13,754 bases of DNA from the IMG/VR virus record IMGVR_UViG_2534682222_000011. One strand, written 5' to 3'. Position 1 is the stretch's first letter. The number at the start of each line of letters is the position of its first letter. Of the stretch, positions 1,905-13,754 are shown one piece after another. The notes below the pieces were generated by a model. It was given only the letters and a program-made list of their open reading frames with translations. It was not told the DNA's origin and made no database searches. Both the position numbers and the translations under genes were made by a program. Source of the stretch: a virus (lineage: Duplodnaviria > Heunggongvirae > Uroviricota > Caudoviricetes).

Positions 1905-2537
1905 ATGGCACACAATGCGCTTATCTATTGCCGCGCCAGTACATCAGAGCAACACGCAGACCGGGCGCTGGGCTTGCTGCGAGAGTTCGCCAGTGATCGG
2001 GGCTGGCCTGTACGGGCGGAGTACATCGAGAACGCCAGCGGTGCGAGGCTGGCGCGTCCTGAACTAATGCGCTTGCTGGATGATGCGCAGGCCGGAGAGG
2101 TCTTGCTTGTCGAGAGCATCGACAGGCTAAGCCGCCTTACGCAAAAGGAATGGGCGACACTGAAACAGAGGATTCAGGATAAGGGACTGGTGATCGTTGC
2201 CGTTGACCTGCCAACCTCATGGCAACTACTGAACGATACGGCGTCAGAGCTTACAGAGGGCATCCTGAGAGCTGTTAACGCAATGCTGATTGATATCCTC
2301 GCTACGATGGCACGAGTGGACTACGAGACACGCAGAGCACGCCAAGCGCAGGGCATCAAGCGTGCCAAAGCCGAGGGGAAATATAACGGGAAGTCTAAGG
2401 ATGAGAGCGCCCGTGAAACTGTCCGCGCTATGCTTACCGTTGGGAATAAACCAGAGCACATCATGAAAGCTGCCGGGATAAGCCGGGCAACGTTCTACCG
2501 TATCAAACGTGAGCTGTCCGCCAGCGTTACAGAGTGA
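1905..2537 (+). CDS. serine recombinase, resolvase/invertase family (210 aa)
   Basis: N-terminal catalytic motif LIYCRASTSEQ (Y-x-R-x-S-T-x-x-Q, presumed nucleophile Ser), SG...R...GEVLLVESIDRLSR core, and C-terminal helix-turn-helix (ISRATFYRIKRE), as in small serine recombinases. Purine-rich SD-like GGGGGAAG precedes the ATG. Confidence 0.9.
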   Translation: MAHNALIYCRASTSEQHADRALGLLREFASDRGWPVRAEYIENASGARLARPELMRLLDDAQAGEVLLVESIDRLSRLTQKEWATLKQRIQDKGLVIVAVDLPTSWQLLNDTASELTEGILRAVNAMLIDILATMARVDYETRRARQAQGIKRAKAEGKYNGKSKDESARETVRAMLTVGNKPEHIMKAAGISRATFYRIKRELSASVTE

Positions 2538-2953
2538 TGACCTACAGTCTGATGAGATGCCAGCACTGGCCGTTACTGGGCTGTGGGTGATGGATGGCCT
2601 ACAGCTTTTGTATTGATATCAGATATTTATGTTATGCCTAATCTCGTAATGGTATGATTTATAATGTATTTCCGTATTACTTGCGGCTCTTGATATGAAG
2701 AGATGGCGGGGCTTTAGCCGTGCCAGACGATGAGTATCAAGATCAGATTGTGAATGTGATTTATCACTGAACAATTCGAGGGATGGGGCAGGGGAAGGGA
2801 TCAAAGGCTGTGTTGTCCAATCACTCAGCTAGATTTGAAGCAGGGCAACACCTTCGTTTTACCTTTAAAGTTGCATTTAAAATACATGTACAGAAAAGGG
2901 TTCTTCCCTTTCATCCCTTCTCCTAATCAGTGTTATCGCTTTTCGCTCTACAC

Positions 2954-3023
2954 TGGCTGCGCTTCTCGCTATGCTCCAGCCCGCTCCATCGCCTTTGGCT
3001 CATTCCCGGCCTTCGCCCGCTGT
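2954..3023 (+). repeat. scrambled tRNA-Gly 3'-half-like fragments (possible decayed att scar / left junction)
   Basis: Contains GCTCTACA, CCCGCTCCA, ATTCCC and a 12-nt exact match CCTTCGCCCGCT to the tRNA-derived att at 13224-13251, same orientation but out of order. Confidence 0.3.
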
Positions 3024-3080
3024 GATGCTCGGCCCTCCACGCAACCGTGCTTGCCAGGCAGTCAACGCGGCGGGGATAGA

Positions 3081-3113
3081 GTAGTGGTACGGTACTATAT
3101 TGGGATATGGTAC
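3081..3113 (+). repeat. GGTAC direct repeats (candidate integrase arm-type sites)
   Basis: GGTAC at 3086-3090, 3091-3095 and 3109-3113. The reverse-complement motif ([C/G]TACC) is clustered at 13152-13182 next to the integrase start. Confidence 0.25.
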
Positions 3114-3288
3114 TCACAATGCCGCTTATAACCCCTTACATCCCAGCATCCCAACAAACCTACTGAAAGTTATCAGCAAATCATTCATCAAGTCAGACAG
3201 GGCAAGGCTTACAAAGGTGTTGATTAAAAAATAATCAAATTAGAGTTTCTACTGTGGCAAAACGAACACCACTCGCTTGTGCATACGT

Positions 3289-3354
3289 AGTGACCTACAT
3301 GAAAGTCACTACTAAAGAGGGACAGAACATTCAACGTCACTGCTGACATGAAAT
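3289..3354 (+). promoter_or_regulatory. operator-like repeats upstream of helicase gene
   Basis: Dyad AGTGAC-N10-GTCACT (3289-3310) and direct repeat ACATGAAA (3297-3304 and 3347-3354), in the non-coding leader 75-140 bp upstream of the 3428 start. Confidence 0.3.
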
Positions 3355-3427
3355 TCTCTCTACGGGCAGCTCGGCGCTGCCGTCCTGCGCCTCGTTCTAA
3401 ACTCACCTTAATTTTGGAGATTTCACC

Positions 3428-5272
3428 ATGCCAACGAACCTACGCCGTTTGCTTGCGCAGGCTGCCGACGCTGACCCGCTCAATACCGCAAACGCAGATG
3501 TACAGCAAATGGTCGCTGACGGGATTGTTATTCGGCGTTCCAAGATATGCCCGATAAAGCATAAACCCGTTAAGGCGGCATACAACACGAAGACCGAAGA
3601 GTTTTATTACAATGCTGATGGCTCCGCTATGACCCTGCGGGAATGGCGAGCGCTGCATGGTGTTCAACCGAAGAAGCAAAAACAGCGCTCTGACACGGGG
3701 TTGCGGCAAGTCATCCAGCCCGGTGACGCAATTCATTGCCGACGCGCTGAGATAGAAATGTGGCTCAACAAGAAGCCTGCTCGGTATGCTGACCCGCTGC
3801 CGCCTGATTTTCCCGGTGTTCGCGTAGATGATGCCGCATTGAAACCGCGCGAGCACGCCGTTTCGGCATCGACAACCGGGCAGAATGCTTTTCTCAAAGC
3901 CTGCCGCGAGTTCCTGATTTGTGATGAGAAGACTATACACCGCATCAACAGGGGCATGAATAAACTGGAAGCGATGCGCAATTCAGATTTCAAACGCTAC
4001 GGGGACTCAGCGGAGTTTCGTCAATTGTGGTGTGGAGAGTCGAAACCTACCGAGGATAAATTTAACAGTACAAATCATCATTGTGACCCAAACGGCTTGG
4101 CAGTGTCGCCGTCTGTGCCGTCACTGAATACAGCCTCTTATGAGTTTCGCCCGCTGGTTCGCTGTGACCGAAACGCACGCGTTAGCCTGTTGCCACCCGA
4201 TGGGCTGGAGTGGAGGCCGGGGCAGTTGTCTGTTGCTGATGCGATCTTCTCCCGTGGTAGTGATGTGCTGGCCGTTCTGCCTACGGGTTATGGCAAGACC
4301 GCCGCCTTCGCTTATCCATTGATTTATGAGTCCCGCGCTGGCGTTGGCCTGTCTGTAATCGTGGTTCCCACTAATACCCTAAAGCGCCAGATTCTCCGCC
4401 AGTTGCGGGATGCTGGCGTTCACGCTGTGGCATTCGGTGACAAGTTGCCGAGGCACCGCAACGCTCAACAACTCGCGGGGCTGGCTGCCGGGGCGTTCCG
4501 TGTTGCTGTCGTTTCACCTGAGCATCTTGTTCTGTCGAGTCAGGTCTTCGCGGCGCTGATGGCTTACGGCGTTGATCGTTTTATCATCGACGAAGCGCAC
4601 ACGGTTAAAGACTGGGATTTCCGACCCGCTTACGAGGCCATGCAGCACTCGCTACAACATGCCTTTCTTTCGGCTCAACGCTGCGTATTTACGGCTACGC
4701 TGCTACGCGAAAATGAGCGCAGTTTAATGGCGTCGCTTGGCTGCCGTGGTGATTACGTAACATTCCGTGCTGATGTTGCTCGCGAAAATATCCAGTTGAC
4801 GACAGTCAGACAGTGCCGCGAACGTTTCCGAGCGGCTATTGGTCTGGTCGAGGCTCTGCCGAAAGAAGAGAAGACGCTCATTCTCGTCAATGACCTTAAG
4901 ACGTTGCGGGCGTACCTGAAACTCTTAGGCGACCGGGCGCGCCCATATCACTCGAAGACGATGCACTTGAGTAACGAAGAACGCCACGCAAACGCTGAGT
5001 GGTTTGCCACTACGCCGGGCGCAATTCTGATTGCTACTAAAGCCTTCGGGCTGGGGGCTGATGTGCCAGACATTCGCAACGTCATCGTTACATATATTCC
5101 TGATGACCTGCCTGACCTCATTCAGATGATTGGACGAGCCGGGCGCGATGGTCAACCTGCCCGCGCGTTTCTGCTGTGGTCATCGCTGGCGCTGGATGCT
5201 GCGCCTGATGAGCTTGCTTACTTCTACCGCCCTGAAAACTGCAACTGGCAGTACATCGCTAAATACCTCTGA
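3428..5272 (+). CDS. SF2 DEAH-box helicase, RecQ-like core, with ~270-aa N-terminal extension (614 aa)
   Basis: Helicase motifs in order: LPTGYGKT (I/Walker A), VVPTNTL (Ia), IIDEAH (II), FTATL (III), LIATKAFGLGADV (V), QMIGRAGRDGQ (VI, RecQ-type). N-terminal part has an excisionase/AlpA-like winged-helix signature (TLREWRALHGV ... GDAIHCRRAEIEMWL). GGAG RBS 10 nt upstream of the ATG. Confidence 0.9.
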   Translation: MPTNLRRLLAQAADADPLNTANADVQQMVADGIVIRRSKICPIKHKPVKAAYNTKTEEFYYNADGSAMTLREWRALHGVQPKKQKQRSDTGLRQVIQPGDAIHCRRAEIEMWLNKKPARYADPLPPDFPGVRVDDAALKPREHAVSASTTGQNAFLKACREFLICDEKTIHRINRGMNKLEAMRNSDFKRYGDSAEFRQLWCGESKPTEDKFNSTNHHCDPNGLAVSPSVPSLNTASYEFRPLVRCDRNARVSLLPPDGLEWRPGQLSVADAIFSRGSDVLAVLPTGYGKTAAFAYPLIYESRAGVGLSVIVVPTNTLKRQILRQLRDAGVHAVAFGDKLPRHRNAQQLAGLAAGAFRVAVVSPEHLVLSSQVFAALMAYGVDRFIIDEAHTVKDWDFRPAYEAMQHSLQHAFLSAQRCVFTATLLRENERSLMASLGCRGDYVTFRADVARENIQLTTVRQCRERFRAAIGLVEALPKEEKTLILVNDLKTLRAYLKLLGDRARPYHSKTMHLSNEERHANAEWFATTPGAILIATKAFGLGADVPDIRNVIVTYIPDDLPDLIQMIGRAGRDGQPARAFLLWSSLALDAAPDELAYFYRPENCNWQYIAKYL

Positions 5273-5310
5273 GTCGAAAGGCTCCCCCTCATTCTCTGGA
5301 GTTAATCCAT

Positions 5311-5748
5311 ATGCCTGTTACCGAACATGCGCAGCGTCGTGCTACGCGTGCGGATGCGCTCGTCACCGCACAACTTGCCTTCGCCCTGAACGGATATTCC
5401 TTCGATGGGTTAGCTGAGCGCCACCGCCAGACTCTTAATCGTGCGGCCATCTTGCGCCAAGCTGGTACGCCGCTACAGCGGTATTGCCTGCTCAATCACT
5501 GTGAGCCTTGGGAATGTCTGGCCGCTGTGCTGAATAGATTCCGACGCCGGGAGGATGGCGCTCGTCTTTGGCCGACCTATCGCATGGCTCGTGAGGTCTT
5601 TAATGGGACTGTTCACCCTGCCAACAAGACGCGCGACGAGATATTTCAATCTGTGCAGCGTCGCCTCTTTTTACCAAAACCAGTACACGCCGAAGTAATC
5701 CAGTACCTGCGCGTAATGGGGCTGACAGGAGTTAATCCGCATGACTAA
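5311..5748 (+). CDS. hypothetical protein (145 aa)
   Basis: ORF with GGAG RBS about 10 nt upstream; first in a chain of overlapping, translationally coupled ORFs. Confidence 0.6.
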   Translation: MPVTEHAQRRATRADALVTAQLAFALNGYSFDGLAERHRQTLNRAAILRQAGTPLQRYCLLNHCEPWECLAAVLNRFRRREDGARLWPTYRMAREVFNGTVHPANKTRDEIFQSVQRRLFLPKPVHAEVIQYLRVMGLTGVNPHD

Positions 5749-5947
5749 AACCGAGTTTGAAAATGAAACGTGGCGAATGAAAGGCTTGCTTCTTGGGGCG
5801 CTAATCCGCCGCCTTGAGGAAGACAAGGCTGGTGAGTCGCGCATGGCCGCAGCGGAGTTATCCAGTGCGGTCAACTTCCTTAAGGCCAATGCCGTAGAAG
5901 CGCCGGACACGTCATTTAACCGTGTATTTGAGGATGACGAGCAATGA
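5741..5947 (+). CDS. hypothetical protein (68 aa)
   Basis: Start overlaps the end of the upstream ORF by 8 nt; GGAG RBS with the same spacing as the upstream gene; acidic C-terminus. Confidence 0.5.
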   Translation: MTKTEFENETWRMKGLLLGALIRRLEEDKAGESRMAAAELSSAVNFLKANAVEAPDTSFNRVFEDDEQ

Positions 5948-6120
5948 CACCCGCAGAGTTTAGAGCATGGTTTGCAACCCTGCCGCCGAACTATCAGAGC
6001 GCAGCACGAGCCATGTATGAAAGCGCCCGCAAGACGGGAACACACACCGCTTCCAGCCTGCTACTCATTCGCACGCTGATTGAAGATCAAATCAATTTCG
6101 ATGGAGACTTTACCTTATGA
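5944..6120 (+). CDS. hypothetical protein (58 aa), not in supplied ORF track
   Basis: Hand-translated: ATG at 5944 overlaps the upstream TGA (ATGA); uninterrupted to TGA at 6118-6120, which overlaps the next ATG at 6117 (ATGA). Fits the coupled-operon pattern. Confidence 0.4.
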   Translation: MTPAEFRAWFATLPPNYQSAARAMYESARKTGTHTASSLLLIRTLIEDQINFDGDFTL

Positions 6121-6680
6121 CAGTTCTGAGCCTGACCGATATCCAGCGCATCAATACCCTCGTTAAGCGCGACCTTCGCAATGTGGAAGAGGTAGTCGCT
6201 GCAACCGGATTTGACCCGGAGGACGTTGACGCGGTGCTGCGCGGCGTTTATGTAGCCGACCTTGCCAACCAGTGGAGGGATGAAGCCGCTATTACGCTGG
6301 AGGAATACAACGCCATCCGTAAGCGCTGGAAACCGGGGCGCGGCCACTGGGACACTGCACATGCCATTGCACGCGATTTTCTAATTCGGCCTGAAACTGT
6401 GCTGGCTATCGTCCATTCCCGCTTTAGCAACGCCCACACCCACCCGATGCCGAAAGCAGTTAAAGCAAAGCCTGAGAAACCGCAGACGATGCGCCGCCTG
6501 TTGAGCGCCGACCTCGATCAGATGCACAAGCTGGAGCGCTTCGGCTGGAAACAAACCGAGATCGCTGGGGAGCTTGGGATCTCTGCTGAGGCTGTTGCTC
6601 ATGTCCTGCGCCTGATGCGTAGCAAGTGGTCTTATCCAGATATTTTGGAAGACGTTAACACGCGATTCGGGGCTAAGTGA
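6117..6680 (+). CDS. hypothetical DNA-binding protein with C-terminal HTH (187 aa)
   Basis: C-terminal segment WKQTEIAGELGISAEAVAHVLRLM resembles a helix-turn-helix; start overlaps upstream stop. Confidence 0.65.
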   Translation: MTVLSLTDIQRINTLVKRDLRNVEEVVAATGFDPEDVDAVLRGVYVADLANQWRDEAAITLEEYNAIRKRWKPGRGHWDTAHAIARDFLIRPETVLAIVHSRFSNAHTHPMPKAVKAKPEKPQTMRRLLSADLDQMHKLERFGWKQTEIAGELGISAEAVAHVLRLMRSKWSYPDILEDVNTRFGAK

Positions 6681-6913
6681 TGGCAGAGAACGAACCGCTG
6701 CACCCTGCCGTTAACCCTGATCTCTATGTGAACCTTGACGAACAGCGCGAGGGATACGCCCCGTTTGAATCACGCGGCTGGGATGTGCTGACACAGAACC
6801 TGTCCGGGGAAGGGCGAACTGATCCCGGCCAAGCACCAAACCAGAATCCAAGGCAGCGACCGCGTGGCTCCGTTGGCGAGCGACGTTGGTTGCGTCGTCA
6901 TGGCCTTATCTAA
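6680..6913 (+). CDS. hypothetical protein (77 aa)
   Basis: ATG at 6680 overlaps the upstream TGA (TGATG); the ORF track's GTG at 6677 is less likely. Basic, Pro/Arg-rich C-terminus. Confidence 0.45.
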   Translation: MAENEPLHPAVNPDLYVNLDEQREGYAPFESRGWDVLTQNLSGEGRTDPGQAPNQNPRQRPRGSVGERRWLRRHGLI

Positions 6914-6927
6914 CTGAGGATTATTTC

Positions 6928-7167
6928 ATGAGCACCATTATTTTAATGGAGCCACGCCGCGCGGCTGATTGCGGGCAACAACTGAAATTCATTGCCGAAG
7001 CCTTGAATCTTCGTCAAATCGATTTGGCTCATGTGTACCAGATCGACAGACAAGATCTCGGCAAAGCGTACCACGGACAGAAGATGATTCCTGCCCGATG
7101 CGTACACGCGCACATGCTTTTACTTGAACTGGCACATCGCCGAGTTACATCACAAGAGGTTGCATAA
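6928..7167 (+). CDS. hypothetical protein (79 aa), possible small HTH regulator
   Basis: ATG at 6928 with GAGGA RBS 7 nt upstream, preferred over the TTG at 6886. Segment LNLRQIDLAHVYQIDRQDLGK is HTH-like. Confidence 0.45.
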   Translation: MSTIILMEPRRAADCGQQLKFIAEALNLRQIDLAHVYQIDRQDLGKAYHGQKMIPARCVHAHMLLLELAHRRVTSQEVA

Positions 7168-7169
7168 TC

Positions 7170-7856
7170 ATGGCTGACCAGAATGTTAATCCGTACCTTT
7201 CGGGCGCTGATACTGCGCCGCAGCAATCGCCGTACATGGCCGCACCTGTAGGCGCTGACAACGGCGCTAGCAGATTCGACCAGACAACACCTGATGCTGA
7301 TTTCCTGAAAACGCAGCCAGCGAACATTAATCAAAGCTGGAACGAAAGTAACTTTGCCAACCAGCAAGACCAGCAGATTGATGTTGCTGCGCAAGTGGGC
7401 GACACGCTGCAATTACAGGATGGCACTACTGTTGAGTTGACTCCTGAACTTCATGGGCTGATGGGGCAGTTTCACCAGTCTGTCGAAAGCCAGCTAGGGC
7501 AGGGGACAGTTGACGCGATGTTGCAGTACGCTGGCACGCTCGACGCCGGGACGCAATCAACCCTTGAACGGATGGTTATGTCTGGCGACCCTGCGCAGAT
7601 GCAGCGGGCGGTTCATTATCTGCAAGAGCGTATGGTCGCAGGCACTGCGACTGGTTATGTCCCATCACAGGGGAACCCATACGGCCAGCCTGCCTCGCAA
7701 CCTGTTGGTATGTCTCATGCTGAGTTTATTGCAGCGTATGATCAGCTTTCGCAGTGGGCGCAGCAATCAGGGTATGGCCCCGGCCATCGCCAGTACGACG
7801 ATCAATACCGCGCTCTGGTTGCGCAGCGCTCCGCTGGCAAACGCGCTGGCCGTTAA
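7170..7856 (+). CDS. hypothetical Gln/Ala-rich acidic protein (228 aa)
   Basis: AAGAGG RBS 10 nt upstream of ATG. Q-rich, acidic, low-complexity composition of the kind seen in scaffold or decoration-type proteins, but no diagnostic motif. Confidence 0.65.
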   Translation: MADQNVNPYLSGADTAPQQSPYMAAPVGADNGASRFDQTTPDADFLKTQPANINQSWNESNFANQQDQQIDVAAQVGDTLQLQDGTTVELTPELHGLMGQFHQSVESQLGQGTVDAMLQYAGTLDAGTQSTLERMVMSGDPAQMQRAVHYLQERMVAGTATGYVPSQGNPYGQPASQPVGMSHAEFIAAYDQLSQWAQQSGYGPGHRQYDDQYRALVAQRSAGKRAGR

Positions 7857-7916
7857 GCAATCGCCTGTCCTGTCTTCCCCACGTCTTAACCTTACGTTTT
7901 AGAGCCTGAATCGCGT

Positions 7917-7936
7917 TGTACATCGCCAGATGTACA
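7917..7936. promoter_or_regulatory. TGTACA-N8-TGTACA palindromic repeat pair (candidate activator/operator site)
   Basis: TGTACATCGCCAGATGTACA lies in the 160-bp intergenic gap between the 228-aa and 115-aa genes. Confidence 0.3.
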
Positions 7937-8015
7937 TTCGTATACCTGCACCTGTAAAACGCGAAATTACCTCTCAAACACCACACATAAACCCACTTTG
8001 CATTGAGATCTGACA

Positions 8016-8363
8016 ATGACCTTACTGACACCTGAAAACGTGGCAGCGGCTAGGGCTGCCCGTAGCGCGAGGATTGAACACTGGAAAGCCAACGCCAGCC
8101 AGCTTAAGCAGGACTTTGCTGACGAAGCGCACTGGCGGCGGCTCGCCTCACGCTTCGGCGTGCGTATGCCCTCGGCGTATGTTCCCGGCTCCGAGCTGCG
8201 ATTGCTGCGCCGGGCGGCCAAACGCGCGGGCATCTCTGGTGCTGATATGCGCGATGCTTTTGGTGGGGGCGTTGCGCACCTGCACGAGCTTAATCCCCAT
8301 TGGCCTGCCTTCGCGCTTATCGGCCTGATTCTTGAGATCGCGGCTGAAAAAGCTGCTGCCTGA
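8016..8363 (+). CDS. hypothetical protein (115 aa)
   Basis: ORF after an intergenic gap; Ala/Arg-rich; weak RBS. No recognisable motif. Confidence 0.55.
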   Translation: MTLLTPENVAAARAARSARIEHWKANASQLKQDFADEAHWRRLASRFGVRMPSAYVPGSELRLLRRAAKRAGISGADMRDAFGGGVAHLHELNPHWPAFALIGLILEIAAEKAAA

Positions 8364-8431
8364 TTCATCCCATTCTCTTTTCCCCTTTTCCATAAATCGC
8401 GCTGGCTAACGCTGGCGCGGGAGCTATTTCT

Positions 8432-9427
8432 ATGACTGACAATGTTTATACCCCTGACCAATTCCGCCCGCACTGGGGCGGTGTAGATGCTGACAACGAC
8501 ATTCACATTGAAGCGTATGACCGGGACGTTCAGACCCGCCTTGAGGCAAAGAGCGTGTTTCTCGCCGAGGGGCTGAGCACATACAAGCCGCTGAAAAACA
8601 GTAATCAGTATCGTGTAGACCGCCTGAGCGGAGATCTGGAGGTGAAGGGCAGAACCGCAGGGCAATCGCTGGAGCCTACCGCCGTTAAGTCGGACAAGCT
8701 GATTATCTCTGTGGATACGCTGAGCTATATCCGCATCCCGATTGACTATCAAGACGACTGGACAGCGCCCACCTTTCGCGCAGAGCTGAGCCGCAACATG
8801 GGGACAGCCCATGCAAAGTTCTACGACGAAGCGCACACTATCCAGCTAATCAAAGCGACTGACTTTGTACCGCCGCCTACGTTGCAACCAACGTTTAACC
8901 CGCTGACGGATAATGTTGTCTCGCTCGACCTGACAACGGGGAGCGAAGAGGATGCGGCTAACGAACTGGTTCACGCTATTAAAGCTGCTGTTAATCGATT
9001 CCTAACTGAAAAAGATATTCCGGTGGCGGAGCTGTGCCTTCTCATCGACCCAGCTTGGTTCAGCATCCTGATGGAACATAAGAAGTTGATGAACGTCCGT
9101 TACAGCCGGGATAGTGGCAATGATTACGCATGGCGTCGCGTTGGCTATGTCGCTGGGGTGCGAGTTATTGAGCTGAACAGTTACCCGCAGGAAGCCATTA
9201 CCGCGCATGAACTGGGCGCTGATTATGATGTGACCGCAGGGGAAGCGCTGACACGGGCGACGCTGTTCCGGCCTGCGTCTGTACTTGTGACAGTCGAAGC
9301 GCAGAGCGTTATCAATCGCCAGTGGGATGATGAACGCGAAATGACAATGGTGATGGACTCATATCGCCTGTTCAATGTTGGGCTGCGCCGCCCTGACTGC
9401 GTTATAAATTTCCGACAAGCTGCATAA
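8432..9427 (+). CDS. hypothetical protein (331 aa), possibly structural/morphogenetic
   Basis: GGGAG RBS 8 nt upstream of ATG. Largest protein of the late-region-like block; no catalytic motif seen; role inferred from context only. Confidence 0.7.
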   Translation: MTDNVYTPDQFRPHWGGVDADNDIHIEAYDRDVQTRLEAKSVFLAEGLSTYKPLKNSNQYRVDRLSGDLEVKGRTAGQSLEPTAVKSDKLIISVDTLSYIRIPIDYQDDWTAPTFRAELSRNMGTAHAKFYDEAHTIQLIKATDFVPPPTLQPTFNPLTDNVVSLDLTTGSEEDAANELVHAIKAAVNRFLTEKDIPVAELCLLIDPAWFSILMEHKKLMNVRYSRDSGNDYAWRRVGYVAGVRVIELNSYPQEAITAHELGADYDVTAGEALTRATLFRPASVLVTVEAQSVINRQWDDEREMTMVMDSYRLFNVGLRRPDCVINFRQAA

Positions 9428-9443
9428 CAAAAGGGGCCGAGCC

Positions 9444-9971
9444 ATGAATATTGATGCTTATGCCCCGGAGCTGTTGCGCTCTTTGTTTCGGTACGATGCG
9501 AAGACTGGCCGCCTGTTCCATGCAGTAGACCGGATCGGAGCCAACAAGCGGATTTACGCTAAAGCCGGGGAACTGGCCGACACGGTAACGGACAGCGCCG
9601 GATATAGGCGCGTATCTGTCCGCATCAATGGCAAATCTCATGCGCTATACGCCCACCGTGTCGCCTTCATCATTGCTAATGACGGTATCCCTGCCGGGAT
9701 GCAAATCGACCATATCAACGCGGTACGCGATGACAACCGCCTTATCAATCTCCGCACGGTTACGCCACAAGAGAACCAGCACAATTACCGCAAAGCCAAG
9801 GGTTATAGCCACCATGCCTGCTCTGGCAGATGGGAGGCTTACATTCGCGTTGGTGGTGTTCGCCATCACCTCGGCTTATTCACTACCGAAGCGGCGGCGC
9901 GTGCTGCGTACCTGAAAGCTAAAGCCAGATACCATCCGTCAACGCCAGCCGATTTATTGCAGGCTGCCTAA
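9444..9971 (+). CDS. HNH endonuclease with C-terminal AP2-type DNA-binding domain (175 aa)
   Basis: HNH_3-like motif (YRRVSVRINGKSHALYAHRVAFIIANDGIPAGMQIDHINAVRDDNRLINLRTVTPQENQHN) followed by AP2-like GRWEAYIRVGGVRHHLGLFTTEAAARAAY. AAGGGG RBS upstream. Confidence 0.85.
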   Translation: MNIDAYAPELLRSLFRYDAKTGRLFHAVDRIGANKRIYAKAGELADTVTDSAGYRRVSVRINGKSHALYAHRVAFIIANDGIPAGMQIDHINAVRDDNRLINLRTVTPQENQHNYRKAKGYSHHACSGRWEAYIRVGGVRHHLGLFTTEAAARAAYLKAKARYHPSTPADLLQAA

Positions 9972-9989
9972 TCCTCGGAGGTTCCATTA

Positions 9990-10415
9990 ATGGCTGATGA
10001 AAAGCCGATTAGAGCGCTGGCAGATGATGACCCGCGCCGCCAGCGGTACGCTGAACTGTTGGCGCAGGCTGGCCGCATGACTATTCCACGGCTGCATCCG
10101 GGCGATGCTAACAGTGTTATGAGTCAGCTTGCGACAATGCTCGGAGCACCTGTCCCGATAGTAGGTGCTATGACTGAGCACGCCGCTGCATGGCGTGCCT
10201 GTCTTCTGGAGCAAGGGCTTGGTGATCTTCTGGATGGCTTGAGTAAGCAGGTGCTGACCATCTTCTTTCTGCTCTGCTGGAGAGACAGCGCCTTGCGATT
10301 GGCGGGTAAGCAAAAGGAACGGTTTGCAGCGGCCAGCGAGGGTTTGACCATTGAGCAATACCGGGCAATGCACCCGGCTTACAGAGAGGATAAAGAAAAT
10401 GATAACCACGATTAA
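9990..10415 (+). CDS. hypothetical protein (141 aa); position suggests a small-terminase-like or packaging-redirection protein
   Basis: Strong GGAGG RBS 8 nt upstream. Functional guess rests only on its place directly downstream of the HNH endonuclease. Confidence 0.6.
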   Translation: MADEKPIRALADDDPRRQRYAELLAQAGRMTIPRLHPGDANSVMSQLATMLGAPVPIVGAMTEHAAAWRACLLEQGLGDLLDGLSKQVLTIFFLLCWRDSALRLAGKQKERFAAASEGLTIEQYRAMHPAYREDKENDNHD

Positions 10416-10698
10416 ATTAAGGTGGCGGTACATCGAGCCGCCACCAATGACTGGCGCACTCGCTGACCTGAAACAGTGGGTAATGGATACCGGAGAGCCT
10501 GAGCTTGAAGCTAAATTTCGTAAGCTGCTGGGGCTGATGCGCCGCAATGGTATCAGTGACGAACGTGTTAATGCGATGGCCGCCGAGCTTTATGCTCTGG
10601 TATGCCAACGCCAGCGCGAAGAATACGAAGCCTGCAAACGGGCTGCATCTGACAGTGGAGGCTTTGAATCATGGTTACACGGACAGACCAACTACTAA
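10399..10698 (+). CDS. hypothetical protein (99 aa)
   Basis: ATG at 10399 preceded by GAGAGGA RBS and overlapping the upstream stop region; preferred over the in-frame ATG at 10351, which lies 65 nt inside the upstream gene. Confidence 0.55.
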   Translation: MITTIKLRWRYIEPPPMTGALADLKQWVMDTGEPELEAKFRKLLGLMRRNGISDERVNAMAAELYALVCQRQREEYEACKRAASDSGGFESWLHGQTNY

Positions 10699-11108
10699 GA
10701 AAAGCGATGCGAGGCTATCTGGAATATCTCGGCAACATGCCGCTAGCGGAACGCATTAAAAATTCTGCTGCGTTCGATGATGTGTATCACTTCCTGTTGA
10801 ATGGTTCAGGACGGCTGGAGTTGCGCCGCGCTGATGTGGCCGCTGTCCGTGTCTTCCTGTGGAATTATCAATACCGACGCTGCGCGGTGACAGCTAAGCC
10901 GCTACGCCTCGCGTCTGCTGTATTGGATCACTGTCACCGAACTGGACGTGTGCGCGCTGTGGTTCATCGTTCGGCCAATGCAGCGGAAGGTGGTTATTAT
11001 GTGGGAAATTTGTGCGGACTCTCACGAAGTAGCATGTTAAGCATGCTACCTGCCTACCGCCGACAATACAAGGGGTTGGGCGTTATTTATCCAAGACAAC
11101 ATGCGTGA
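10671..11108 (+). CDS. hypothetical protein (145 aa)
   Basis: GGAGG RBS 9 nt upstream of ATG; overlaps upstream ORF by 28 nt. Confidence 0.55.
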   Translation: MVTRTDQLLRKAMRGYLEYLGNMPLAERIKNSAAFDDVYHFLLNGSGRLELRRADVAAVRVFLWNYQYRRCAVTAKPLRLASAVLDHCHRTGRVRAVVHRSANAAEGGYYVGNLCGLSRSSMLSMLPAYRRQYKGLGVIYPRQHA

Positions 11109-11186
11109 TGAGATTATTTCTTTTATTTTCATTCGGTTATGTGTTGTTGTGGCTGCCTTGTTACTTGCCTATATTTAAAACAATTC

Positions 11187-11225
11187 TTGACGGATTGACG
11201 TAGATTGCGTAGGCTGAGCATAAAA
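11187..11225 (+). promoter_or_regulatory. putative sigma70-type promoter for the two-gene cassette
   Basis: Tandem TTGACG hexamers (11187-11192 and 11195-11200) with candidate -10 elements TAGGCT (17-bp spacer from the first) or CATAAA (18-bp spacer from the second), in an AT-rich intergenic region. Which pair is used is unresolved. Confidence 0.35.
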
Positions 11226-11309
11226 CAGTTTCCTAATATGTCTCCAAACTGAGCTTCAACTTGAGAATACTTCGTTCCTACATCTCCCTTGAAGGGGTAG
11301 GAGGATAAT

Positions 11310-11519
11310 ATGAACTTTGATATGCGTACAAACCAAAATTGTGCATCGTTTTTTAACCCAGCAACCAAGGCGTTTGTCGTCGTTGATTCGTTTGACAACT
11401 ACGAATTCGATGTGCGTGCTGGTACTTTATCACGCACTGAATTTGTAGGCACCATCACAGCTTCAAACGATGAAGAGTTGAACAAGAAATTAGCTGAGAT
11501 CACGGCTGCACACATATGA
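11310..11519 (+). CDS. hypothetical small protein (69 aa), cassette gene A
   Basis: Very strong RBS (AGGAGG, 5-nt spacer); AT-rich codon usage unlike the upstream block; stop overlaps next start (ATGA). Confidence 0.6.
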   Translation: MNFDMRTNQNCASFFNPATKAFVVVDSFDNYEFDVRAGTLSRTEFVGTITASNDEELNKKLAEITAAHI

Positions 11520-11890
11520 TAACTCAACAGCAGATTGATGATTTAGTTGCAGATATTAACGATATCTTGGAAGAAGATAGAGCCAAGCTAAAGATGTCAT
11601 TTCATTTTGCTGTTGATAGACTTAATGATCCGCGTAATAAACCTCCAATCACGTTAGCTGAGTTGAGAGTGATTTTTACAAATTTCATTGGACAACACTT
11701 GCAGACAATTCTAGGCAAAGATGAGGGATTTTCCTTCACTATCAAGTGTCAGAAATCTGGTATTGCTATACCGTGCGCTATAGAGCATGAACTTGATATC
11801 GGTGCAAAGTGGGTAGTTCAGCAAGTGATCACCATCATGCGGAATCCGCAGTTTAACGCGTATCATGGTGATGTCATCTTTGATGTTTAA
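11516..11890 (+). CDS. hypothetical protein (124 aa), cassette gene B
   Basis: Translationally coupled to gene A; followed by a canonical intrinsic terminator. Confidence 0.65.
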   Translation: MITQQQIDDLVADINDILEEDRAKLKMSFHFAVDRLNDPRNKPPITLAELRVIFTNFIGQHLQTILGKDEGFSFTIKCQKSGIAIPCAIEHELDIGAKWVVQQVITIMRNPQFNAYHGDVIFDV

Positions 11891-11893
11891 AAG

Positions 11894-11916
11894 AAAGGCG
11901 CTATAGCGCCTTTTTT
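11894..11916. terminator. rho-independent terminator, plausibly bidirectional
   Basis: Hairpin AAAGGCGC-TATA-GCGCCTTT followed by a T6 run on the plus strand; the complement reads hairpin plus TTTCTTTT. Abuts the integrase stop codon. Confidence 0.7.
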
Positions 11917-13135
11917 ATAAACACGGATAACTGACCAACTCCACATACTCCCATAGTTCTTTCATCCCTGCTCCCTTGCTATATGTCCTGAAAGCTTCCG
12001 TTTTAGCTTTTTGTTCGGTATGCCCGGTTATTGCCCCTATGCGCTGTTCTGGTACTCCTGCTCTGTCTAAGCAAGTAATAAAGTGACCACGCAGGGAGTG
12101 GAAGCATTGGCGATCTGTAGCCGCTGACAGCACGCGACGGCGTAGCCGTGTAAATGCCTGCGAGTACCACGGGCCACGCTTACCGTCGGCACGTTTAATC
12201 TTGTTCGATTGGGGGAGCAGGTATTCACCGTTGTTCTGCGCAAGGTATTTATCAACGATGCTGATTAACAGCGAGTGTATGGGGACGTGCCTTACACCCG
12301 CTTTAGTTTTAGATTTGCTGACGTAGAAGCAGCGTACCCCTTCAACTTTGATAATCTCAACTCGTTTGATGCTGGCGATTTCGTCGAGACGCATACCGGA
12401 ATACAAACCGATTATGATTACGTCTCGTATCTCGCTACCTGCCTCTTTTATTAATGCCTGTAGCTGGTGTAGTTCAAAAGGTTGATAACTTTCGTTCGTC
12501 TGGCGGGCTTCCAGATTGTGGCCGTGAAAGGGATTATCAGGGGCGATATTGTCATATTTACGCCGGGCGAAGTCATACAGCGTCCCTAAGCAGGTTAACC
12601 AGTTTTGCAGCGTCTGGCGGGAAAACTTATCTTGGTTCGCTTCCAGAAAGTCAGAGACGAGCCGCCGCCCGATTCCATTTATTGTAATGGTTGGGCGTTT
12701 TATTGAATTAGTAAATGCCGATACAGCGCGAACTGATTTACTCAGCGTGGAATAAGAGCGCCGATCTTTGTATTGCTCTGCATATTCTTTACTGACATCT
12801 GTCAATTTTGGTGATGCTGGTTTTCCCCGCTCTGCTGGAATAGTTGCGGGTGTGGTAATGCTGCTGGATACCCCCGCCAGCAAGTGAAGATCTGTTACAG
12901 CGGAATGAATCCGGGTAATGGGGTTATCCGGTTTCATCATGAGCTGTAGCTTACGGAACTCTAATAAATATTGGTCACGGAAAATGCGAGCTTGCATGAT
13001 GTCCCGTGTGCCTGTCGATTTCTTGAGCGAGCGCCGCCCGTTCCAGAGGTGGCGCATGTAGACCGGAATATAGATTTGAAAGATGAATATCCCATCTTTG
13101 TTTGCATAAAGATAAGAAGTCTTCTTGATTGGCAT
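11915..13135 (-). CDS. int: tyrosine site-specific integrase (406 aa)
   Basis: C-terminal catalytic region with HSLRGHF (box II-like) and a downstream Tyr (RTYSKG). ATG at 13135 with AAGG RBS preferred over the TTG at 13165 used by the ORF track. Adjacent to the tRNA-derived att. Confidence 0.9.
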   Translation of the reverse strand: MPIKKTSYLYANKDGIFIFQIYIPVYMRHLWNGRRSLKKSTGTRDIMQARIFRDQYLLEFRKLQLMMKPDNPITRIHSAVTDLHLLAGVSSSITTPATIPAERGKPASPKLTDVSKEYAEQYKDRRSYSTLSKSVRAVSAFTNSIKRPTITINGIGRRLVSDFLEANQDKFSRQTLQNWLTCLGTLYDFARRKYDNIAPDNPFHGHNLEARQTNESYQPFELHQLQALIKEAGSEIRDVIIIGLYSGMRLDEIASIKRVEIIKVEGVRCFYVSKSKTKAGVRHVPIHSLLISIVDKYLAQNNGEYLLPQSNKIKRADGKRGPWYSQAFTRLRRRVLSAATDRQCFHSLRGHFITCLDRAGVPEQRIGAITGHTEQKAKTEAFRTYSKGAGMKELWEYVELVSYPCL

Positions 13136-13151
13136 GGTAATTACCTTGTAA

Positions 13152-13182
13152 TCTACCGCTACCAACTACCGGGATAAGTACC
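13152..13182 (-). repeat. clustered (C/G)TACC(G/A) repeats between int start and att (candidate arm-type sites)
   Basis: CTACCG, CTACCA, CTACCG and GTACCG within 31 bp; mirror the GGTAC repeats at 3086-3113. Confidence 0.3.
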
Positions 13183-13223
13183 GCGATTACTTATTTTGGT
13201 TCACAATTCATAGGGTTAGCAAA

Positions 13224-13251
13224 GAGGGTTCGATTCCCTTCGCCCGCTCCA
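13224..13251 (+). repeat. att site: 3' terminal 28 nt of a tRNA-Gly gene (T-arm, acceptor 3' strand, CCA)
   Basis: GAGGGTTCGATTCCCTTCGCCCGCTCCA has a T-stem/loop (GAGGG-TTCGATT-CCCTT), 7-nt acceptor strand CGCCCGC, discriminator T and CCA. It matches the 3' end of E. coli glyU as I recall it. No 5' half is present upstream. Confidence 0.7.
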
Positions 13252-13484
13252 ATTTATCTTCACCTCATCAATCTGCCATTTTTGCTGTATCTGATTTTCT
13301 ATATTATCTTAATTCAATCGCTTCAGACTTTTCGCAATCGCCGTAATATTTCCCCATTTTGTTGTAAATAAAAAGCGTTTACGCAATGCAATCCTTTTGT
13401 AACAACCCAGGTAAAACACCTTATTTTCAAGTTGTTAAATAAGTGGTTATCTACGCTTTTAACAAACGATTGATGGAATATTTT

Positions 13485-13634
13485 ATGAAAGGGAAATCTG
13501 CATTAACTCTTCTGCTCGCTGGTATATTTTCGTGCGGCACATGCCAGGCGACAGGGGCAGAAGTGACGAGTGAATCTGTATTTAACATTCTTAATTCCAC
13601 GGGGCAGCAACAGATAAAAGTTATTTATCGTTAA
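13485..13634 (+). CDS. small secreted protein/lipoprotein-like peptide (49 aa) in the chromosomal flank
   Basis: N-terminal signal-peptide-like MKGKSALTLLLAGIFSCGTCQA; lies outside the att site in AT-rich flank. Start at 13485 chosen over upstream in-frame ATGs. Confidence 0.4.
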   Translation: MKGKSALTLLLAGIFSCGTCQATGAEVTSESVFNILNSTGQQQIKVIYR

Positions 13635-13754
13635 ATCCAGATAAGTACCCTAATTATCGTCTTCTGATTCACTCAGCCAAATTAAAAAATGAAATAAAGA
13701 GCCACTATACCAAAGACGAAATTCAAGGGTTGTTAACATTAACAGAAAACACGG

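Follow-up and report, generated by a model that had tools for sequence, protein, structure and literature searches.

A chain of six small genes as a candidate helper-exploitation module in enterobacterial chromosomal islands, putative satellites of T7-like phages

Among the described systems to which the locus reported here can be compared, operon I of the Staphylococcus aureus pathogenicity islands (SaPIs) contains the genes terS, ppi, cpmA, cpmB and ptiA/B/M, and CpmB shares a C-terminal capsid-binding region with the scaffold of the helper. The operon is controlled by LexA, the helpers of SaPIs are temperate siphoviruses, and the islands use the capsid protein of the helper; in SaPIs, as in phage-inducible chromosomal islands (PICIs), a divergent switch region adjoins the integrase. 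Two further systems belong to the comparison. Capsid-forming PICIs (cf-PICIs) carry an int-alpA-primase set together with genes for capsid, protease, portal, head-tail connectors and TerS, sometimes also TerL, and borrow only tails (PMC13612085; bioRxiv 10.1101/2022.09.08.507074), and the PICI-like element (PLE) of Vibrio cholerae, a satellite of the virulent phage ICP1, manipulates the packaging motor and capsid assembly by means of small island-specific proteins (PMC10945586; bioRxiv 10.1101/2024.04.22.590561). In this work, we describe a chain of six small open reading frames, ORF1 to ORF6, found at positions 5311-7167 of the IMG/VR virus record IMGVR_UViG_2534682222_000011 (Caudoviricetes), a stretch of 13,754 nucleotides hereafter called the window, which comes from a chromosomal island of enterobacteria. 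No description of this island family, or of a satellite of Bonnellvirus phages, was found in the searchable literature, the coverage of which is incomplete.

The chain is probably, in the main, a module for the exploitation of a helper phage and of its packaging, carried by a putative satellite of virulent T7-like phages of the Bonnellvirus type; it may hold one or two regulators, and is not expected to contain the master switch of the island. The link to T7-like phages follows from the presence, in the island, of diverged helper-type features, namely a capsid protein, the C-terminus of a scaffold protein, a small terminase and an endonuclease, and of a copy of the terminal-repeat boundary of these phages. 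The window was compared with 12 related islands, four from E. coli (L002-L005) and eight from Enterobacter, Kosakonia, Kluyvera and Trabulsiella, spanning five genera; the window and these 12 relatives are referred to as the 13 islands, and L001 is a near-identical E. coli copy, within the chromosome NZ_LR536431, a part of which is 100% identical to the chain region.

Similarity of ORF2 to small terminases was detected in several concordant ways. The protein matches the PHROG family phrog_891 (small terminase) with E=4e-3 and shares 47% identity, over 30 aa, with the small terminase of phage Lidtsur, and a few members of its family have a precomputed match to the Pfam family PF11123 (DNA_Packaging_2). 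When 28 ORF2 relatives were compared by hhalign with 51 Autographiviridae small terminases taken from viral contigs, the two families aligned with a probability of 94% and E=1.3e-7: residues 12-55 of ORF2 align to positions 10-59 of the 101 of the terminase (TerS), with a shared motif, AAELS..FLK.N. A hidden Markov model of ORF2, run on 770 Lidtsur ORFs, has the small terminase as its sole good match (E=8e-6), and a wider homologue search for ORF2 retrieved nothing beyond island relatives. The similarity does not extend over the whole terminase, since ORF2 ends about 40 residues short of the phage protein (68 aa, as compared with about 90-101 aa). By these sequence comparisons, ORF2 is related to T7-type small terminases, as a truncated homologue, and is not a full member of PF11123: it has the N-terminal and central core in common with the T7 gp18-type proteins, but is devoid of their C-terminal third, scores below the gathering threshold and, instead of lying beside a large terminase gene, is located in a chromosomal island.

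A second link to the same phages is non-coding. A stretch of about 85 nt, close to the left end of the window, matches 14 out of 50,697 phage records, all of the Bonnellvirus type, with 71-80% identity and E values down to 3e-9. Phage J8-65 has defined ends and a right terminal direct repeat annotated at 40723-40981, and here the match extends across the left edge of this repeat. Conservation of the core of the element, GCTTGAAAA(A)TTG..CCTCCCTC(G/A)AC, was seen in 11 islands and 3 phages. This boundary is, we assume, where a T7-type terminase is expected to recognise and cut concatemers, and the island copy is a candidate packaging or cutting site; a packaging signal acting in cis and related to that of the helper is among the features by which a satellite may be recognised, and the match would provide it. 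The element is single-copy in the window and in Lidtsur, and because of its single occurrence in the phage it is not a general promoter. Promoters of the helper RNA polymerase were also considered as a route of induction, and discarded: a repeat search in Lidtsur gave no repeated motif, and no 10-mer is common to three or more of its intergenic regions.

The genes which follow the chain point in the same direction. ORF7, which lies immediately downstream, matches phrog_1018 (head scaffolding protein) with E=5.4e-5 over residues 114-227; the scaffolding protein of Lidtsur, 411 aa long, has a C-terminus with 31% identity to residues 126-227 of ORF7. The capsid protein encoded further downstream shares 56-58% identity with its counterparts in Lidtsur, J8-65, Kc261 and related phages, all virulent and of the genus Bonnellvirus, and its matches in PDB reach E=5e-78. 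The endonuclease VII-like protein is also related to a Lidtsur protein, an endonuclease with which it shares 39% identity over residues 71-107 (E=5e-4). Scans of island ORFs against Pfam, PHROGs and NCBIfam detected no gene for a portal, a large terminase, a tail or a DNA or RNA polymerase. At the DNA level, neither the whole window nor the chain shows similarity to phage records, and the matches to Lidtsur found in the window are limited to the capsid gene and the junction element. Coordinates of all these features, along with those discussed below, are reported in Table 1.

Table 1. Features of the window and of related islands (positions refer to the window, except for the att repeats, given for the islands named)
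Feature	Position	Strand	Description
Terminal-repeat boundary element	1360-1445 (core 1364-1402)	+	non-coding copy of the terminal-repeat boundary of helper phages, about 85 nt; candidate packaging/cutting site
Small serine recombinase	1905-2537	+	resolvase/invertase; PHROG phrog_125, E=3e-40
Conserved structured block	2678-3100	+	non-coding, about 430 nt, between resolvase and helicase genes; structure predicted
Direct repeats and palindrome	3238-3380	+	iteron-/operator-like direct repeats and 26-bp palindrome (3287-3312), just 5' of the helicase gene
RecQ-like DEAD-box helicase	3428-5272	+	614 aa, with a 250-aa N-terminus without assignment; Pfam DEAD E=2e-22, Helicase_C E=2e-14
ORF1	5311-5748	+	145 aa; all-helical orphan (predicted); first gene 3' of the helicase gene
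ORF2	5741-5947	+	68 aa; truncated homologue, by sequence comparison, of T7-type (gp18 family) small terminase
ORF3	5944-6120	+	58 aa; small orphan, below the ORF-track threshold
ORF4	6117-6680	+	187 aa; predicted DNA-binding type, three helical bundles, helix-turn-helix in the C-terminal one
ORF5	6680-6913	+	77 aa; low-complexity orphan with basic C-terminus
ORF6	6928-7167	+	79 aa; two allelic types; helix-turn-helix suspected, unconfirmed
ORF7	7170-7856	+	228 aa; short scaffold-like protein
Major capsid protein	8432-9427	+	331 aa; Autographiviridae (Bonnellvirus) type; PHROG phrog_267, E=2.8e-67
HNH endonuclease	9444-9971	+	PHROG phrog_99, E=3.5e-48
Endonuclease VII-like protein	10671-11108	+	PHROG phrog_423, E=2.5e-15
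Tyrosine integrase	11915-13165	-	PHROG phrog_1, E=9e-36; RefSeq: tyrosine-type recombinase/integrase
att repeats	L003 1958-1988/17358-17388; L004 1337-1368/16140-16171; L005 1232-1263/16611-16642		direct repeats

Besides E. coli, where copies with 77-84% nucleotide identity are found in 59 out of 5426 complete genomes, the island family is present in Enterobacter, Cronobacter, Klebsiella, Kosakonia, Kluyvera, Trabulsiella and Citrobacter. Relatives inserted at tRNA-Leu, next to ahr, feature intact direct repeats of 31-32 nt at their attachment (att) sites, delimiting islands of 15.4 kb (L003), 14.8 kb (L004) and 15.4 kb (L005), about 0.36 of the 41-42.5-kb helper genome. The family thus combines an integrase and att repeats, a size well under that of the helper and a partial set of virion genes, as looked for in a satellite. 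The window copy lies downstream of a tRNA-Gly, located upstream of the window start, the window stopping short of the tRNA end. Relatives of the chain proteins are also found in two records classed as viral, the 27.7-kb IMG/VR viral contig L099 (IMGVR_UViG_3300011142_000025) and a 'Caudoviricetes sp.' metagenome assembly (DAE65512.1), which hold an ORF4 relative and a member of the ORF6 cluster; packaging of the island is not thereby shown.

These same observations bear on the possibility that the island is what decay has left of a T7-like phage once integrated there; the six ORFs would then be early or middle genes which have survived, but no longer serve a mobile element. The homologues of capsid, scaffold, small terminase and endonuclease are indeed all of Autographiviridae type, and, as described below, no attR was found in the near-identical copy L001 and an IS1 abuts the integrase. 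However, the same compact gene set, 14.8-15.4 kb in size, recurs in at least five genera, within different tRNA genes and with intact att repeats, and all genes are under purifying selection. Moreover, RNA polymerase, DNA polymerase, portal, tail and large terminase genes are absent from every copy, whereas random decay would leave varying amounts of them, and ORFs 1, 3, 4, 5 and 6 have no homologue in Lidtsur. We regard decay as hardly credible, and the satellite assignment is retained in what follows.

The first-pass annotation of the window, made from the sequence alone, had proposed a chain of six translationally coupled ORFs. Direct reading of the sequence bore out the six ORFs on the + strand with their lengths, the overlaps of 8, 4, 4 and 1 nt and the 14-nt gap. 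The 8-nt overlap of ORF1 and ORF2 reads ATGACTAA, the ORF2/ORF3 and ORF3/ORF4 junctions are both ATGA, and the ORF4/ORF5 junction is TGATG; an alternative ORF5 start, GTG at 6677, would result in a 78-aa protein and a 4-nt overlap with ORF4. In the gap between ORF5 and ORF6, a GAGGA sits 7 nt 5' of the ORF6 ATG. The proposed end of the chain, at 7167, had instead to be moved, since ORF7 begins 2 nt further on: the ORF6-ORF7 gap is 2-3 nt across relatives, ORF7 is thus part of the same run, and no gap larger than 18 nt is found from ORF1 through ORF7. On the other side, the helicase gene stops 38 nt upstream of ORF1.

A Shine-Dalgarno (SD)-like box, GGAG, GAGG or GGGG, is found 7-11 nt 5' of every ATG and is conserved across islands; boxes located inside the preceding genes stay constant, while the surrounding codons vary. 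In the window island, the same 11-nt string, GGAGTTAATCC, occurs before both the ORF1 and the ORF2 ATGs (5294-5310 and 5724-5740), relatives featuring GGAG with differing spacers at these starts. From the overlaps we infer that translation of the chain is coupled: overlapping stops and starts, with an SD box inside the upstream gene, would let ribosomes pass from gene to gene, so that, with the operon turned on, the proteins would be synthesised at the same time and in constant ratios. The chain appears to be part of one long co-directional operon, the predicted order of which is RecQ-like helicase, ORF1-6, scaffold-like ORF7, a variable slot, capsid, HNH endonuclease, two unassigned genes and endonuclease VII. 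Promoter-like and terminator-like sites in the region 2400-11400, chain included, are not in excess over shuffled sequence; internal sigma-70 promoters or terminators within the chain were accordingly rejected, their counts being those expected from shuffling. A run of overlapping small genes is, by itself, ordinary phage-style gene packing.

The six ORFs are real protein-coding genes and belong to the core of the island. All are full-length, and in the same order, in each of the 12 relatives, where the junctions are of the same few kinds, genes overlapping by 1, 4, 8 or 17 nt and ORF6 starting 12-18 nt after ORF5. Median pairwise ratios of nonsynonymous to synonymous substitutions (dN/dS, NG86 method) are 0.14, 0.12, 0.18, 0.19, 0.16, 0.11 and 0.13 for ORF1 to ORF7, respectively, with dS in the range 0.15-0.96, and in the called frame of each ORF codon position 3 varies two to four times as much as positions 1 and 2. 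Conservation of frames and junctions, dN/dS values of 0.11-0.19 for the six, codon periodicity and conserved SD boxes are the grounds on which the ORFs are taken as genuine. Frame-disrupting indels, which the first-pass annotation had indicated as the observation to look for, were not found, the frames being intact in all 12 relatives. The 58-aa ORF3, proposed in spite of its sub-threshold size, also turned out to be real: it is present in the 13 islands and in a distant metagenomic relative, L095, has a dN/dS of 0.18 and is known to RefSeq as WP_000186530.1.

Conservation extends beyond the comparison set. In L095, where the helicase is 40% identical and ORF1-4 show 34-47% protein identity, the order helicase-ORF1-ORF2-ORF3-ORF4 is kept, with overlaps of 4, 4 and 20 nt. 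Identical proteins occur on many contigs, 610 for ORF3, 661 for ORF5 and at least 1000 for ORF6. Genes on the opposite strand were considered and rejected, since long antisense open stretches are inconsistent between islands and codon periodicity matches the sense frames. The gene missing from RefSeq annotation by PGAP is the 77-aa ORF5, unannotated in L001 (10481-10714) and L002 (9305-9538), and annotated in L003-L005. The chain is present in every island, whereas the adjoining slots vary. Two or three allelic types are found for each of the genes ORF1-ORF7, shuffled among islands: for ORF2, as an example, identity is 94-98% in some islands and 72% in others. Breakpoints between alleles lie partly within genes, indicating frequent recombination among islands of different genera.

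The first-pass annotation had further seen helix-turn-helix (HTH)-like segments in two members of the chain, and placed there the regulatory circuitry of the element. ORF4 is indeed predicted to be a helical protein with a C-terminal domain of HTH type. In its AlphaFold2 model (pLDDT 84), three helical bundles joined by linkers are seen, with helices spanning residues 6-52, 61-99 and 130-184; the linker at 114-122 is disordered. The window copy has weak Pfam HTH matches at residues 139-176, all below cut-off, the best being HTH_ParB with 19.7 vs 22.6 bits; within the family, weak matches to Sigma70_r4_2, HTH_23 and HTH_38 are found in 30, 22 and 12 out of 62 members, respectively, with a best E value of 5.7e-6. 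Foldseek proposes weak matches to proteins with multiple HTHs, such as sigma factors, Tc3 transposase, Mor and the DNA-binding regions of phage homing endonucleases; no PDB match has E<0.1, and the best viral match has E=5e-4 with a TM-score of about 0.2. As with ORF2, a wider homologue search for ORF4 returned island relatives only.

The case of ORF6 is different, since no profile method detects the HTH. Searching 10 members of the family with Pfam gives no such domain, even at E<=10, the PDB profile search gives no match, and hhalign against the ORF4 HTH results in a non-significant probability of 0.3%. The label 'XRE family transcriptional regulator' is attached to some UniRef entries only, the HTH-like pattern being otherwise unconfirmed; ORF6 may be a small DNA-binding protein. 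Its two allelic types follow neither the type of helicase nor that of the junction-like element, and no correlation is visible between the allelic types of ORF2, ORF4 or ORF6 and the two junction-element types. Of the two claims, that of two HTH-like members is therefore supported for ORF4, through weak profile matches and a model, and unconfirmed for ORF6, and that of regulatory circuitry stands weakly, through ORF4, and is weakened by the terminase-like nature of ORF2 and by the fact that the chain leads straight into scaffold and capsid genes.

In its fullest form, the regulatory explanation sees in ORF4 and ORF6 a repressor/activator pair, for example of the Cro/CI type or of the sigma/Mor type of late activators, with the small neighbours acting as anti-repressors or controllers of excision. 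It would account for the matches of ORF4 to sigma region 4, HTH_23 and HTH_38 and for the sigma factors and Mor activators among its structural neighbours, for the label of ORF6 and its two allelic types, as often found in specificity determinants, and it could use as operators the iteron-like repeats and palindrome found upstream of the helicase gene. We consider it unlikely: the genes lie in the middle of an operon, between helicase and scaffold/capsid, and not in a divergent switch region by the integrase; four out of six proteins have no DNA-binding signature; ORF2 resembles a terminase and not a regulator; no profile search detects an HTH in ORF6; and the allelic types of ORF6 follow neither helicase type nor junction-element type.

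Better candidates for a switch, or for an origin of replication, than the chain are found upstream of it, in two non-coding features. The direct repeats preceding the helicase gene are about 28 nt long, with a rough consensus of TGAAAGTnnCTAcTAAGGnAGAnAGAAC: two were found by scanning (at 3240 and 3300, about 60 nt apart), and a weaker third one by eye (at about 3349, 49 nt further on). The repeat family lies 5' of the helicase gene, or of an extra ORF preceding it, in 11 out of 12 relatives scanned, L008 being the exception, and the scan found it nowhere else in the window. This extra ORF, also of 145 aa, lies directly 5' of the helicase in some islands (L002 5546-5983, L005 and L006), goes with a 629-aa type of helicase and is not found in the window; it was considered as a paralogue of ORF1 and rejected, the two sharing no similarity.

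The second feature is the block that lies 3' of the resolvase gene and 5' of the repeats. Identity among islands amounts here to 86-95%, above the level of the flanking genes, and the block carries 1-nt indels, because of which it is taken as non-coding. It lies after a TATAAT-like box. RNAalifold predicts a hairpin at about 2689-2743, featuring three compensatory pairs, and a long-range pairing of 2790-2807 with 2907-2924 is also predicted; a search of Rfam gave no match. The block could be a non-coding RNA, an origin or a recombination site. L001 is missing 549 bp, corresponding to 2492-3040 of the window, and hence the last part of the resolvase gene and the larger part of the block; the window thus stems from another genome than this best database match.

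The proximity of the helicase also raises the question of whether the chain, or its first half, might be a replication-accessory module for this protein, the best PDB matches of which are RecQ and WRN (down to E=7e-31), providing a loader, an origin-binding protein or a substitute for a primase, with the terminase likeness of ORF2 as a relic. ORF1 begins shortly after the helicase gene, ORF1-4 follow it even in L095, ORF4 with its multiple HTHs could bind the upstream iteron-like repeats, and neither primase nor initiator was recognised elsewhere in the island by Pfam and PHROG scans. We give this explanation a small chance only, since no ORF matches a replication family in Pfam, PHROGs or NCBIfam, small terminases are the only detectable relatives of ORF2, and the N-terminus of the helicase itself would be a more usual place for origin recognition.

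The remaining members of the chain are orphans. Searching with the ORF1 family resulted in 92 hits, all in islands of Enterobacteriaceae, to which the ORF2 and ORF4 families are also confined, and the ORF1 profile, run on 1.84 billion representatives, retrieved just 14 proteins, apparently its own family. AlphaFold2 models ORF1 as all-helical (pLDDT 71), and Foldseek finds for this model nothing better than E=3 in PDB. A zinc-binding motif in ORF1 (CxxxxC..C, from the cysteines of RYCLLNxCEPWEC) was rejected, the cysteines being lost in L095. ORF3 has no family match; its identification as a CdiI-like immunity protein (E=0.004), ranked under designed coiled coils, was judged compositional and discarded. 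ORF5, for which Pfam, PHROGs, NCBIfam and the PDB profile search give no family or structural match, ends with an invariant basic stretch, RPRGSVGERR(W/Y)L, and is among the most conserved of the six proteins, with 84-100% identity in relatives, except for L005 (63%). Since this identity is found together with a dS of 0.53 and a dN/dS of 0.16, the constraint on ORF5 acts on its protein and not on its DNA.

Various observations weigh against the assignment of the chain to helper exploitation and packaging. The match of ORF2 to PF11123, with E=3.3e-4 and 21.1 bits, is under the gathering cut-off of 27.5 bits, and its similarity to terminases is limited to about 44 columns. No fold or family could be assigned to ORFs 1, 3, 5 and 6, and for them the attribution to hijacking follows from position only; ORF4 and ORF6 could be ordinary regulators, in which case the first-pass annotation would be partly right. 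No promoter of helper type was found for the operon, upon scanning of the Lidtsur intergenic regions. Island proteins are just 31-58% similar to known Bonnellvirus proteins. Finally, in L001 no attR was found, and an IS1 element (IS1A) abuts the integrase end, at about 13140-13754 of the window and at 16941-17638 of L001: the window copy may no longer be able to excise.

Taken together, the data suggest how such a module might work. ORF2 would act with, or against, the terminase of the helper, steering packaging to the junction-like site of the island. ORF4 would supply sequence-specific DNA binding, directed either to the packaging site or to the repeats that precede the operon, and ORF6 might be a further small DNA-binding protein. 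By position and conservation, ORFs 1, 3 and 5 would most likely bind assembly or replication proteins of the helper or of the island, although this is a guess. ORF7, together with the island capsid protein, would build capsids fitting a genome of about 15 kb. A more comprehensive proposal, which we advance as possible rather than probable, joins these steps: the chain would be the hijacking toolkit of an undescribed family of satellites of the T7 supergroup (Bonnellvirus), in which ORF2, as a mimic, recruits or poisons the large terminase of the helper, ORF4, with three HTHs, aims the complex at the junction copy, ORFs 1, 3, 5 and 6 are new inhibitors or adaptors, and ORF7 and the capsid protein build the 15-kb capsids.

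Apart from the genes discussed so far, the island features two variable cargo slots, the former between the scaffold-like and capsid genes (7857-8431, with an ORF at 8016-8363), the latter between endonuclease VII and integrase (11109-11914). In the window, the second slot is occupied by two low-GC (41%) genes, at 11310-11519 and 11516-11890, without functional assignment; in relatives, it contains a restriction-modification pair (L003, 14126-15965) or a gene with an AbiTii domain (L005, 14276-15178). PADLOC defence-system models gave nothing significant. By analogy, these slots look like the defence hotspots of other satellites.

If the proposed assignment is true, the island would represent a fifth kind of enterobacterial satellite, beside P4-like elements, PICIs, cf-PICIs and PLEs, and the first one with a helper from the best-studied group of phages. 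It would offer a tractable E. coli system for the study of how a T7-type terminase picks its DNA, a poorly understood process, and its six small, strongly conserved proteins would be candidate inhibitors or adaptors of T7-like phage proteins. Islands of this family are found in clinical Enterobacter, Cronobacter, Klebsiella and E. coli, O127:H6 included, along with defence-gene cargo, and may affect the outcome of phage therapy based on Autographiviridae.

Comparison with known satellites highlights both differences and parallels. The island is not P4-like, as neither PHROG nor Pfam matches to psu, delta, sid or the alpha primase were found. With cf-PICIs it shares integration at a tRNA gene, a size of about 15 kb, enterobacterial hosts and the possession of its own capsid, HNH and small-terminase-like proteins; in contrast, portal, prohead protease, connectors and int-alpA-primase were not found among the island ORFs scanned, and the island carries instead a RecQ-like helicase, a serine recombinase, structural genes of Autographiviridae type and a scaffold in place of a protease. 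PLE differs in host, helper family and gene set, has no major capsid protein of its own and shows no detectable homology; like PLE, however, the island would depend on a strictly virulent helper, a putative one here, as deduced from its genes. In its proposed mode of action the chain comes closest to SaPI operon I, with which no sequence similarity was detected, full-length TerS being replaced by the truncated ORF2; this island has its own T7-like capsid gene, and neither a LexA box nor other means of control were identified in it. The likeness lies in the layout: small co-directional genes, a small terminase of the satellite, factors for capsid size or scaffolding and narrow-range interference proteins, putative in this island, with ORF7 as the apparent parallel of CpmB and of its C-terminal scaffold region.

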